A DNA stretch of 64,000 nucleotides, taken from assembly GCA_964537915.1 (NCBI GenBank), contig CAZIDM010000008.1, positions 2,076 to 66,075 on the forward strand, in the 5' to 3' direction. This document shows, piece by piece, positions 60,050 through 62,235 of the stretch (position 1 is its first letter; each line of letters opens with the position of its first letter). Source of the DNA: an uncultured Dehalococcoidia bacterium. GTDB lineage: Bacteria; Chloroflexota; Dehalococcoidia; Lucifugimonadales; UBA1123. Under the pieces are notes generated by a model. It searched no databases and had not been told where the DNA came from. It saw only the letters and a program-made list of their open reading frames with translations. A program made the translations under genes and the position numbers.

Positions 60050-60397
60050 TCAGCGCTCCCATGATTCCCGCTCGGCCTTGAGGTATGATTTCACGTCCTC
60101 TGCATCGCCGAAGAGGCGTTGGCCCGGTGACTCAGCGAGGATGTCAGCGGCGGACCTCTGCGAGGATGTTGATGAGTCGGTTACGACCACATCGACAGAC
60201 TCACCCACCGGGAGGTCCTTGCTCACCTTTTCGAGTAAGCGCACCGTGTCAGGGTCAAACAGGCGTTGACCACAACCCAGACACACTTCGGCCTCAACGG
60301 TTACCGTTGCGAGGCTTATTCCTCTCTCTACGAGTTCCTCTACTCGCTTGTCGACAATCTCTCCCCCGCATGTTGGACACTTGCGGAGTAGCGGCAT
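60050..60397 (-). CDS. YgiT-type zinc-ribbon protein (MqsA N-terminal-domain-like), no recognisable HTH
   Basis: 'CPTCGGEIVDKRVEELVERG...VTVEAEVCLGCGQRLFD' is the CxxC...CxxC YgiT pattern. 115 aa. Last gene of a lower-GC minus-strand operon. Confidence 0.55.
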   Translation of the reverse strand: MPLLRKCPTCGGEIVDKRVEELVERGISLATVTVEAEVCLGCGQRLFDPDTVRLLEKVSKDLPVGESVDVVVTDSSTSSQRSAADILAESPGQRLFGDAEDVKSYLKAERESWER

Positions 60398-60421
60398 AGT
60401 TAGCTCCTTGTTATATGCGGA

Positions 60422-61561
60422 TCAACCTTCACCAACAGCATTGACGTTTACGACTTGTGGTTGTCCGCTGCCGACCTCAGTCATCTGAAATCCCTTCTTC
60501 TTAAAGAACTGCACCAATTCCCTCGAATATTTCTCCATTGGCTCAGTGTTCACAATCCTGGACAGTTCTCTGCCGGCTAGAGTAAAGGCAACCCCATTTA
60601 TTCTGAGTTTCTTGCCAATTCTGCTATTGGAGCTAGGTAATAGAATCCAGTGCTTTCCTTGATAACCAAACGGTATGCATACCGCCTGCTGTTCTAGGCC
60701 CGGAACAGCTACACACGGCGTAGGTTCCTGCCAAGAATGGTAGTCAGATATTATGAGGCCGTATTCGTTCAACGCATTAAGCGCGCTGAAGTTGAGCCCA
60801 TATTCCTGAAGTGCATTGTTGCTAGCGTTTCCACCAACTGATGGTACTCTAATGTCATCGAACTGTGAGATGCCCATGGAACACAATCTTACGAAGAGAT
60901 TCGCTATGCTCTGGTCAAGACTTCCTAGGATCCTGACTGCCCTTGTGGAGTAGGATCCCGGCCGTCTGATTTCTCCTGCTAAGATTTTGCCAAAGAGAGC
61001 TTGCATTTCTTCGGTACTCTTCTGCTTGGCTTCTGTCTCAAATGCGTTCAACCAATCATCATTGATCGTCTCGTCCGGTTCATTCGACTCAGACTGAGCG
61101 ACGGTATCGCTGGTATCGGCTAGCTCACCAGCGGCCTTCTGAGTAATTAGGTCTAGGTTGACCTGTTCTCGAAGCACGCGTTGTCCAAACTTCTGGACAG
61201 CTACGTGTGCGTATTCAGGATCGGTCCGCATCTGTTCAGCAATTTGATCGGCAGATGTGTTGATCAGTCGGATGCGTGCCGCTGTTTCTGCGCGTCGTTC
61301 ATCCGCAATACCTGTAAGGTGTGCGACGGGAATATCAATCGCTGCGGAGCACAATTGTCCGGCGGCCTTGAGAAAGTTCCGTCGTACAGGAGGAGGGATA
61401 CCTGGGATAGCCGTGTCAGCTATCAGATCGGTGACGATATCGGGGACGGAAATGACTTCACTGCTGGGAGCTTCAAAGTCTTCGTTGGTCGATTCGTCAG
61501 CCATACTATGAATCTGATCATCCCTTCGTATTTCGTCGAGAGAAATGGTAGTAAGCTTCAC
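60422..61561 (-). CDS. DUF2806 / Abi-alpha-like protein
   Basis: 'DDWLNAFETEAKQKSTEEMQALFGKILAGEIRRPGSYSTRAVRILGSLDQSIANLF' matches the DUF2806 core as I remember it (dW...F...s.eemq.lw.kiLagE...PgsfS.rt...L). Visibly low GC. Confidence 0.5.
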   Translation of the reverse strand: MKLTTISLDEIRRDDQIHSMADESTNEDFEAPSSEVISVPDIVTDLIADTAIPGIPPPVRRNFLKAAGQLCSAAIDIPVAHLTGIADERRAETAARIRLINTSADQIAEQMRTDPEYAHVAVQKFGQRVLREQVNLDLITQKAAGELADTSDTVAQSESNEPDETINDDWLNAFETEAKQKSTEEMQALFGKILAGEIRRPGSYSTRAVRILGSLDQSIANLFVRLCSMGISQFDDIRVPSVGGNASNNALQEYGLNFSALNALNEYGLIISDYHSWQEPTPCVAVPGLEQQAVCIPFGYQGKHWILLPSSNSRIGKKLRINGVAFTLAGRELSRIVNTEPMEKYSRELVQFFKKKGFQMTEVGSGQPQVVNVNAVGEG

Positions 61562-61682
61562 TCATCGGTAAAATCCGGGTTGGAGATAGCCATCCAGACA
61601 TTCTCGCAAAGCATTAGCATGGAGCCACCACTGCAGCCTGCTAGTGGATATGATAGGCGAACCTCTTGTGAACGCCCGTTCA

Positions 61683-62087
61683 TCAGGCCAGTACTGGACG
61701 GAAGTCACTACTGAATTCGGATTCAATGTCCTTGAGTTGTTCCCAGAGTTCCGCATGCCTGTATGCAGCACTCAGGTCACTGGACTGACGCGTCTTTCGA
61801 TACTCTCGGAGTACCTTACTGAATCTCGAAGCCAATTCTGCGTCATCGAAGATCTGGTCGATCGGCCTGTACCCATACACGGTGGCCCCATCGTCATCGT
61901 AATCAATCTGAAGGCCGCATTGTGGACACAGGACCGTCTGGATCTCGATGCACATAACATTAGCGACGGTAGACTTGGTGACTACCATGTGGTTCTGGTC
62001 ATCTTCACATGCCCAGTCATCATGTGGCCGCGCTTCCTCATCTGCAGGATAGTACATGCCTGGATGTAGTCCTTGCTGTCTATTCAC
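61683..62087 (-). CDS. Hypothetical 134-aa protein with partial zinc-ribbon (C...CPQCG)
   Basis: AAAGGAG precedes the ATG. 'VMCIEIQTVLCPQCGLQIDYDDDG'. No family recognised. Confidence 0.5.
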   Translation of the reverse strand: MNRQQGLHPGMYYPADEEARPHDDWACEDDQNHMVVTKSTVANVMCIEIQTVLCPQCGLQIDYDDDGATVYGYRPIDQIFDDAELASRFSKVLREYRKTRQSSDLSAAYRHAELWEQLKDIESEFSSDFRPVLA

Positions 62088-62106
62088 TTTTCTTTTCTCC
62101 TTTCAC

Positions 62107-62235
62107 TTAGTGCAGGTTAGTCTGAAGGAGCGTCCGTAGGTGCGGCGGCACCATGCGCCGAGATTTCTGGGGATCAGCACGATCAGGAGTAACACTAATG
62201 TGCACAGCCAGTTCATCTGATCTCATAGTGGACAT
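62107..62235 (-). CDS. Possible 42-aa leader ORF of the low-GC operon
   Basis: Not in the track. AAGGAG, a 6-nt spacer and ATG (62235), then MSTMRSDELAVHISVTPDRADPQKSRRMVPPHLRTLLQTNLH* ending 19 nt before the next gene. Support is only the RBS and position. Confidence 0.2.
   Translation of the reverse strand: MSTMRSDELAVHISVTPDRADPQKSRRMVPPHLRTLLQTNLH

Follow-up and report, generated by a model that had tools for sequence, protein, structure and literature searches.

A low-GC islet upstream of alaS in a Dehalococcoidia genome: a likely lineage-specific mosaic around a Belisama-type DUF2806 gene

Within a 64,000-nt stretch of an uncultured Dehalococcoidia genome (contig CAZIDM010000008.1, positions 2,076 to 66,075; hereafter the window), the lowest guanine-cytosine (GC) content lies immediately upstream of alaS, at 0.512 for positions 60001-62000 versus 0.54-0.67 elsewhere. 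Three larger open reading frames (ORFs) occupy this dip on the minus strand, encoding a protein of 134 aa, a DUF2806 protein and a YgiT-type zinc-ribbon protein. A preliminary description of the DNA, which had both the ORFs and the GC minimum right, proposed that the three genes and a short leader ORF form an undescribed defence or abortive-infection (Abi) module. Do these genes constitute one system, or does a single gene carry the function while the others are there by circumstance? We consider it likely that the locus is a lineage-specific mosaic with a Belisama-type DUF2806 gene as its functional core, and that no dedicated multi-gene system is involved. The locus does contain a gene that probably serves abortive infection or defence, and this gene belongs to a single-gene family that has already been described, that of DUF2806, the Belisama domain. 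The features on which the argument turns are as follows (window coordinates; compared loci carry L numbers and compared proteins P numbers).

60050-60397, minus strand: YgiT-chimera ORF, 115 aa (ORF list)
60398-60421, minus strand: junction between the DUF2806 stop and the YgiT start, with the YgiT ribosome-binding site AAGGAG and a DUF4258 3' remnant
60422-61561, minus strand: DUF2806 ORF as listed, 379 aa (ORF list)
60422-61504, minus strand: DUF2806 gene as corrected, 360 aa (ATG at 61504, stop at 60422-60424; homologue alignment)
61505-61682, minus strand: 178-nt spacer between the 134-aa gene and DUF2806, with the DUF2806 leader in its last ~70 nt
61683-62087, minus strand: 134-aa ORF (ORF list)

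The DUF2806 assignment, first made by eye, holds in profile search. The protein matches PF10987 over profile positions 11-220 of 221 (86.2 bits against a cut-off of 24.5; E = 3.9e-24), as do 33 of the 33 diverse homologues tested; a search to E = 1e-3 gave 816 homologues. When 22 to 72 homologues are aligned, the start falls at ATG 61504, the relatives all being 357-368 aa long and beginning M-x-D/G-E-S. Because the gene starts at this ATG and not at GTG 61561, a gap of 178 nt follows the 134-aa gene; of the tight spacing described earlier, only that between DUF2806 and YgiT (24 nt) stands. The protein is acidic, lacks a transmembrane segment (maximum KD19 1.16) and is predicted to be soluble.

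A DUF2806 gene has been linked to phage defence by experiment. Among 88 cassettes of the Vibrio cholerae N16961 chromosomal integron tested by Darracq et al. (bioRxiv 10.1101/2024.07.02.601686), Belisama, a single-gene DUF2806 cassette, proved to protect V. cholerae against phage. Their blastp criterion for similarity to the N16961 protein is a coverage of at least 50% with E below 1e-5. Belisama was toxic when over-expressed, and hence was induced weakly; at high multiplicity of infection it gave strong, unrecoverable lysis with no phage amplification. The same study reports detectable homology of Belisama to Abi-alpha and homologues in 70 genera of Pseudomonadota, and according to a 2025 paper Belisama is called by DefenseFinder. 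Abi-alpha itself causes premature lysis, and its similarity to PF10987 was noted by Lossouarn et al. (PMC6356687). Since two papers report the similarity of DUF2806 and Abi-alpha, the kinship that the preliminary description had given is right; its view that the module type is undescribed is not, as single-gene DUF2806 defence was published in 2024. PADLOC and profile searches had been proposed as checks. All six locus proteins gave zero matches to PADLOC-DB v2.0.0 (2023) at E up to 1, a result probably explained by the fact that this release predates Belisama and has no model for it. Pfam and NCBIfam profiles support DUF2806 and the YgiT finger, and scans of the six products against PHROGs and NCBIfam returned only the YgiT finger, TIGR03899 (below its cut-off) and HicB-like matches.

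We liken the window gene to Belisama through domain and gene context, not through sequence identity to the reference protein. The DUF2806 domain, by which Belisama is defined, is present in both. Each is one gene with no conserved partner, which for the window gene is judged from 46 loci of other species and from solo copies in L055 and L056 and is not proof of functional autonomy. Both are horizontally mobile and occur in many taxa and contexts, including prophages and plasmids, and toxicity with lysis of infected cells, the phenotype to be expected, is in keeping with an abortive-infection protein that works alone. The two differ in that the window host is a Dehalococcoidia-like member of the Chloroflexota and not one of the Pseudomonadota, and in that the window gene is not an integron cassette. 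The window subfamily further has a conserved helical N-terminal region, ~110-130 residues long, upstream of the Pfam domain, and the window gene stands behind a near-orphan zinc-ribbon gene and before a leftover antitoxin. A second point of comparison is Abi-alpha (EF2833 of Enterococcus faecalis prophage 6; Abi_alpha/DUF4393, PF14337; PMC6356687), which likewise achieves abortive infection with a single protein, by premature lysis, and is often found on prophages; it differs in being a protein of 272 aa found mainly in Firmicutes, to whose family HMMER does not match the window protein.

By family membership, the DUF2806 protein most likely has a stand-alone defence function of the Belisama type. 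It would be a cytoplasmic protein kept at a low, tolerated level. When a phage infects, it would bring on early lysis or death of the cell and so prevent the release of progeny phage. If this is true, the Chloroflexota example joins a defence family tested so far only in Vibrio. Any expressible DUF2806 member would be useful, and the window copy offers no special handle on the biochemical mechanism.

An AlphaFold2 model of the protein, built with 72 homologues, has a confident C-terminal alpha/beta domain (residues 145-357; predicted local distance difference test score, pLDDT, > 90 for about 190-350). Its N-terminal region consists of two long helices (38-92 and 96-130), modelled with low confidence, followed by an acidic, variable linker. 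Residues K46, A47, L51, P59, A102, Q114 and N116 in this region are near-invariant across the family; D149, D150, F155, E156 and P182 are invariant in 33 diverse members, and E178 is nearly so. One may guess at an acidic metal-binding site or at winged helix-turn-helix-like elements in the C-terminal domain. A Foldseek search of the model against the PDB reached a best E of only 0.26, a sequence-profile search of the PDB gave no match, and the single match in BFVD was a homologous phage protein of 229 aa.

The distribution of the family is consistent with a gene that travels by itself. The 46 loci of other species come from a scan that took one genome per species. Measured against the protein of the window, identity is 54-70% in Dehalococcoidia, Chloroflexota and Caldilineaceae, 65% in Latescibacterota, 53% in Terriglobia, 49% in Binatia and 37-51% in Poribacteria; it is 46-47% in Pseudanabaena, 37-45% in Pseudomonas, Undibacterium and Acidocella, and ~31-34% in sphingomonads and rhizobia. 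In nearly every one of these loci (L003-L048) the DUF2806 gene has a lower GC content than its flanks, mostly by 5-20 points in hosts of GC 0.38-0.71, and the low GC is often confined to the gene itself. Low GC together with 49-65% identity across phyla suggests recent exchange of DUF2806 within one community. Poribacteria, Latescibacterota, Binatia, SAR202 and Caldilineaceae are taxa that we take to point to sponge symbionts. Should the Belisama-type reading be true, this DUF2806 subfamily crosses phyla, at 49-65% identity among Chloroflexota, Latescibacterota, Terriglobia and Binatia and at 37-51% to Poribacteria.

We judged defence neighbours within about 4 kb of the DUF2806 relatives. In eight Poribacteria loci (L018, L025-L028, L030, L033, L040; about 5000-10700) hsdM lies upstream and hsdS downstream of DUF2806, with genes for HTH_37 proteins, BrnT toxins or CopG antitoxins within the hsdM-hsdS gap in some of them; a ninth Poribacteria locus (L021) has only hsdS, downstream. 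The anticodon nuclease gene prrC, situated between hsd genes, is an example of a defence gene inside a type I restriction-modification (R-M) operon. The Poribacteria copies between hsdM and hsdS resemble that arrangement, from which the window copy differs in lying outside an R-M operon. Elsewhere DUF2806 adjoins a C5 DNA methylase (L014), an AAA_15/AAA_21 (AbiEii-like) ATPase (L012) or a DUF4145/HEPN protein (L035); in two Dehalococcoidia genomes (L055, L056) it stands alone among metabolic genes. If the protein is a defence protein, the finding that it recurs within type I R-M operons supports that role independently, from genome data. Relatives also occur on 45 IMG/VR viral contigs, in 2 temperate phages and on 307 plasmids, of which 303 are conjugative, mostly enterobacterial plasmids of ~33 kb; on IncX4 plasmids the mcr-1 cassette interrupts the DUF2806 gene (PMC8221240). 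Judged from these contexts, DUF2806 behaves as an apparently mobile single gene linked to defence.

Two side observations concern these loci. The HsdS proteins of L018 and L027 end in a C-terminal DUF433 domain. In L055 (the same place as L003), at 6118-7681 on the minus strand, a 120-aa double zinc-ribbon protein is encoded divergently upstream of the solo DUF2806 gene; a 396-aa protein without a Pfam match comes after it, and a weak ParE-like ORF of 81 aa lies downstream.

The other genes of the window locus do not accompany DUF2806. The products of the 134-aa, YgiT, leader, HicB-like and 169-aa genes (the last two being neighbours described below), searched by tblastn against the 46 loci, gave nothing; the single exception was a zinc-ribbon match in L003, weak and on the opposite strand. 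All-versus-all clustering of the ORFs within 4 kb of DUF2806 returned no partner family besides synteny inside Poribacteria. The arrangement of the window was found only in L001 and L002, short contigs of the same organism, and in one sister genome (L049), which has, in order, HicB, a 134-aa homologue (72% identical), DUF2806 (79%), an 81-aa YgiT, alaS and ruvX. At the DNA level the window and L049 are 76% identical in the islet and 83% identical in alaS, and dN/dS between the two is 0.12 for DUF2806, 0.175 for the 134-aa gene, 0.39 for YgiT codons 1-66, 0.10 for alaS and 0.09 for HicB.

That the 134-aa gene, DUF2806 and YgiT, with or without the leader, might make up one new multi-component defence or Abi system of interdependent parts is a reasonable thought on seeing the window. 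The genes lie on one strand, their order is kept in L049, purifying selection acts on all three, and an atypical GC of 0.50 is common to DUF2806 and the 134-aa gene. Yet a 134-aa relative is found in none of the 46 loci of other species and on no viral contig, the one weak YgiT-like match is that on the opposite strand of L003, and the one remote relative of the 134-aa protein occurs by itself. Relatives of the YgiT protein pair with DUF4258, not with DUF2806; its C-terminus is not the same in the two genomes to which the arrangement is confined, and the leader ORF is not conserved. Co-conservation of the trio had been named beforehand as a test of the proposed module, and outside the sister genome none was found. 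The four-gene system fails because its genes are not co-conserved, and we regard an interdependent system as distinctly improbable. The four-gene combination is apparently a local accident of insertion into a toxin-antitoxin patch and not a new system.

The patch can be recognised from the YgiT gene. The first ~60 codons (60218-60397) encode a double CxxC zinc ribbon of the YgiT/MqsA-N type, with the motifs CPTCGG and CLGCG: the YgiT finger model TIGR03831 matches residues 7-50 with 24.8 bits against a cut-off of 20.2, and the MqsA models PF15731 and TIGR03830 reach 16.8 and 21.5 bits against 30 and 61.8, with their N-terminal part only and no helix-turn-helix (HTH). These residues are 63-70% identical to 81-aa YgiT proteins encoded directly behind DUF4258 genes. 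In L051-L053 such an 81-aa YgiT gene directly follows DUF4258 (PF14076, E = 5e-20), stop and start nearly abutting. L051, a Dehalococcoidia metagenome-assembled genome, has the same neighbourhood as the window (an FAD oxidase, the homologue of the membrane protein, HicB and alaS, the last 86% identical in DNA). DUF4258 is listed among toxin families of the BECR/RelE superfamily, and 17 DUF4258-MqsA fusions are on record (PMC11980606).

Homology of the window to L051 sets in at 60412, a point 10 nt past the stop codon of DUF2806 and 15 nt short of the ATG of YgiT. The final codons of the DUF4258 ORF in L051 (ctcgcgcacaagaaggaggtaa) are matched in L049 by the 22 nt that follow the stop of DUF2806 (ctcgtgcacaagaaggaggtaa). 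Because these 22 nt are coding in DUF4258 and non-coding here, DUF4258 was apparently the earlier occupant and has been overwritten; tblastn found no DUF4258 gene in the 64-kb window. YgiT is, on this comparison, evidently the antitoxin half of a displaced DUF4258-YgiT pair. It resembles the published DUF4258-YgiT/MqsA-type pairs (PMC11980606) in its N-terminal YgiT half and in the presence of the L051 pair in the same neighbourhood, and differs from them in that the toxin is gone save ~22 nt, the C-terminus of the antitoxin has been exchanged and there is no HTH.

The order of genes in L051 differs from that in the window, the DUF4258-YgiT pair lying on the other side of HicB. The pair is flanked there by a direct duplication of ~270 bp (about 3300-3575 and 4361-4627, both matching window 62993-62730) made up of the membrane-protein gene's 3' end together with its terminator region, and the pair seems to have moved by recombination. 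The differing order and the duplication therefore point to more than one rearrangement in the history of the locus.

The zinc ribbon without the MqsA HTH is as the preliminary description had it; the gene is not a plain YgiT gene, for residues 55-115 (60050-60235) come from elsewhere. They are 75% identical by BLASTP to residues 17-77 of P0127, joined in frame, and the tail donor is an unrelated 77-aa family (P0127, P0130, P0137) to whose locus L050 the DNA at 60049-60217 is 78% identical by blastn. Close YgiT relatives are 80-81 aa long and tail-family matches 77 aa, each covering 50-63% of the query. The 77-aa family has no Pfam match and a C-terminal motif …PGQRLF…EDV…YL…ERESWER; its genes (L050 4001-4234, L058-L060 3001-3234) lie directly after MmeI-type R-M genes or among insertion sequence elements. 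The fusion appears recent and specific to the window's lineage, because L049 retains the ordinary 81-aa form. An interspersed repeat of ~25-40 nt, whose copies are 88-100% identical, occurs at 59950-60006, just downstream of the chimeric gene and within ~230 nt that are present in the window and lacking from L049; further copies lie at 225-256, 10315-10355, 47717-47769, 49504-49521 and 56728-56754.

The survival of the antitoxin invites the idea of a toxin swap, in which DUF2806 took the slot of DUF4258 and is now neutralised by the remodelled YgiT protein, by the 134-aa protein or by both, as a regulated three-part module. The zinc-binding N-terminal domain of MqsA is its toxin-binding part, and in the window the zinc ribbon is intact and not evolving neutrally. 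The replacement is also precise: the ribosome-binding site of YgiT is kept, and 24 nt separate the gene from the stop of DUF2806. Since Belisama is toxic on over-expression, something to neutralise it would also be of use. DUF2806 genes elsewhere, however, have no such partner; recognition between antitoxin and toxin is normally specific, and DUF4258 and DUF2806 are unrelated; and the constraint on YgiT is relaxed (0.39), its C-terminus having been replaced in one lineage. We think a swap of this kind quite unlikely. If true, it would be a natural conversion of a stand-alone Abi protein into a regulated module.

Comparison of the window with L049 and L051 shows what appears to be a history of insertion and displacement, and this history fits the mosaic with a Belisama-type core. 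A block of ~2.1 kb and GC 0.50 (60422-62533), carrying the 134-aa gene and DUF2806, was inserted upstream of alaS in the common ancestor of the window and L049, into the neighbourhood that in L051 holds the DUF4258-YgiT pair and the orphan HicB in another order relative to HicB. All but the last ~22 nt of the DUF4258 toxin gene was lost in the insertion, which left the YgiT gene with its ribosome-binding site directly behind DUF2806; later, in the window lineage, the tail of a different small gene took the place of the 3' end of YgiT, in frame. The DUF2806 protein would act alone, as a Belisama-type abortive-infection protein. As an example of the evolution of small defence and toxin-antitoxin patches the locus is a clean, sequence-level record of a toxin overwritten by an incoming block while its antitoxin survives and subsequently recombines with a small gene; this record and the spread of the DUF2806 subfamily across phyla are the least ordinary aspects of the locus.

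An atypical composition and relatives of DUF2806 on viral contigs would also be expected if the islet were a chance leftover of some integrated element, such as a prophage in decay. To this we give next to no credence. The block is only ~2.1 kb long and holds no integrase (as had been noted at the outset), tRNA or phage gene; its flanks are conserved housekeeping and toxin-antitoxin genes in syntenic relatives; and both of its genes are intact and under purifying selection in two species. Size, content and synteny thus dispose of a prophage remnant, which had been named as a possible outcome.

Of the genes in the block, the one for the 134-aa protein is the more obscure. It is a true gene, as had been supposed: it is 72% identical to P0122 of the sister genome and is under purifying selection (dN/dS 0.175), and its start (GTG 62087) and Shine-Dalgarno sequence (AAAGGAG) are both kept in L049. 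The protein has no Pfam, PADLOC or PHROGs match and only sub-threshold, chance-level NCBIfam matches. Among 5.8 billion clusters only the protein itself and P0122 were found, and a profile search of 1.84 billion representatives added only P0140 (121 aa, E = 2.5e-7); no viral contig carries a relative. The gene for P0140 and a neighbouring Uma2-family gene lie in an ilv-leu operon, between its leuA and leuC (L057 6001-6999), with no DUF2806 nearby. The P0140 and Uma2 genes have a GC of 0.54-0.56 versus 0.61 for the operon, and look like another small insertion. Cys27, His33 and Cys54-x-x-Cys57 are conserved, which suggests a small, putative zinc site. The AlphaFold2 model is weak (pLDDT 56), with four beta strands and two C-terminal helices, and its confidence is too low for a fold search. 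The GC common to the 134-aa gene and DUF2806 leaves room for the view that the two may have arrived together, and there is no further tie between them.

Several observations weigh against a mosaic in which DUF2806 alone is the functional core. Many DUF2806 members lie among housekeeping genes and not in defence islands. With the NCBIfam model TIGR03899, a hypothetical equivalog, the protein scores 72.7 bits over profile positions 19-247 of 250, below the cut-off of 155.65, and seems to be related to that family but not a member. HMMER finds no match to Abi_alpha (PF14337), either for the window protein at E up to 1 or for 33 homologues at E up to 0.1, and the link to Abi-alpha therefore rests on the profile and structure comparisons of the two papers. 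The 134-aa gene and DUF2806, adjacent, of common GC and under purifying selection in both sister genomes, may have a functional tie in this lineage. Finally, YgiT codons 1-66 retain both CxxC motifs at a dN/dS of 0.39; constraint on YgiT is relaxed, not absent, and the gene may still be in use. We nonetheless take the 134-aa gene to be most likely a passenger and the chimeric YgiT a decaying antitoxin.

Part of this evidence would equally suit a DUF2806 protein that has no defence role here, being a selfish, otherwise-functioning or inactive passenger in a subfamily too distant for the Belisama result to be transferred to it. There is no match in PADLOC and none to Abi_alpha by HMMER, the family has no similar solved structure or assigned biochemical activity, and several copies stand among metabolic genes. 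Such a passenger is at odds with the strong purifying selection on the gene (dN/dS 0.12), with its repeated occurrence, in independent lineages, within R-M operons and beside toxin-antitoxin, HEPN and ATPase genes, and with its carriage by phages and conjugative plasmids; moreover, the two members of the wider superfamily that have been tested by experiment both act in abortive infection. We hold the absence of a defence role to be unlikely, and retain the Belisama-type reading.

How the locus is expressed bears on whether its genes form a unit. A leader of ~70-90 nt upstream of DUF2806 is kept across phyla in upstream alignments (window 61505-61575, L003-L009, L049), with the sequence elements …GCGAAATCCACCGCTACTTCCC…GGAAAGGATGnTTAGATAGTnnnATG, and a Shine-Dalgarno-like element (GGAAAGGA-like) stands 17-22 nt before the DUF2806 ATG, an unusually distant position. 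DUF2806 may use this leader of its own. A scan upstream of the 134-aa gene found no sigma-70-like site, a consensus that Chloroflexota promoters may not fit; that the locus is one operon is an assumption. Two candidates in the spacer were rejected. A hairpin masking the Shine-Dalgarno element in the leader was considered, and RNAalifold gives no consensus pairs. A 41-aa ORF at 61558-61683, whose TGATG and GTGA overlaps hinted at translational coupling, is broken in all frames in L049 and is spurious.

The surroundings of the three genes comprise the following features.

56869-59565: alaS; the minus-strand ORFs of the locus lie between it and the divergent HicB-like gene
62088-62533, no strand: intergenic low-GC stretch of 446 nt, between the divergent HicB-like gene and the 134-aa gene
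62107-62235, minus strand: 42-aa 'leader' ORF, inside the 446-nt stretch
62534-62773, plus strand: HicB-like orphan gene, ~79 aa (PF15919 / PHROG 497)

At finer resolution the GC content dips to 0.50 versus ~0.62, and the low-GC block can be delimited as 60422-62533, at 0.48-0.51. Its parts are the DUF2806 gene (0.50), the 178-nt spacer (0.48), the 134-aa gene (0.51) and the 446-nt upstream stretch (0.50); outside it are the YgiT gene (0.55-0.61), the HicB-like gene (0.55) and alaS (0.65). Homology between the window and L049 starts at 62117, so that roughly the last 30 nt of the 446-nt stretch are kept and the remainder is not, and blastn of the stretch matches only the same organism (L001). 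The 42-aa ORF within it, which the preliminary description had offered as a leader gene, has no homologue and no counterpart in the sister locus, and we treat it as a chance ORF. No RNA family of Rfam matched the whole window at gathering scores or the region 59450-62600 at E up to 1, and a tRNA scan of the window found none.

The orphan HicB named in the preliminary description is present, with a weak match: 20.9 bits to PF15919 (E = 4e-4), below the cut-off of 27, and E = 1e-7 to PHROG 497. The ORF list and Pfam show no adjacent HicA-sized ORF with a family match, so that this is no HicAB pair; a tblastn search of the window for HicA with an approximate query gave chance-level matches only, which we do not count as evidence. 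The gene is kept in L049 and L051 and is, by its conservation, apparently an older resident outside the acquired block. The small membrane protein said to lie next door is likewise there, a 169-aa protein (62850-63359, minus strand) that has one strongly hydrophobic helix (residues 29-47) and matches no family. L051 retains it as a protein of 158 aa, and its gene also appears to be an old resident and not part of the islet; a terminator-like hairpin follows it at 62816-62789.

On the other side, the alaS leader (59566-59918, minus strand) is 83-86% identical in L049 and L051. A structured leader or T-box was considered for it and rejected, with no Rfam match and a fold z-score of -1.29. A strong sigma-70-like promoter, TTGACA-17-TAGAAT with 11/12 matches, lies at 59904-59876, ~310 nt upstream of the alaS start.

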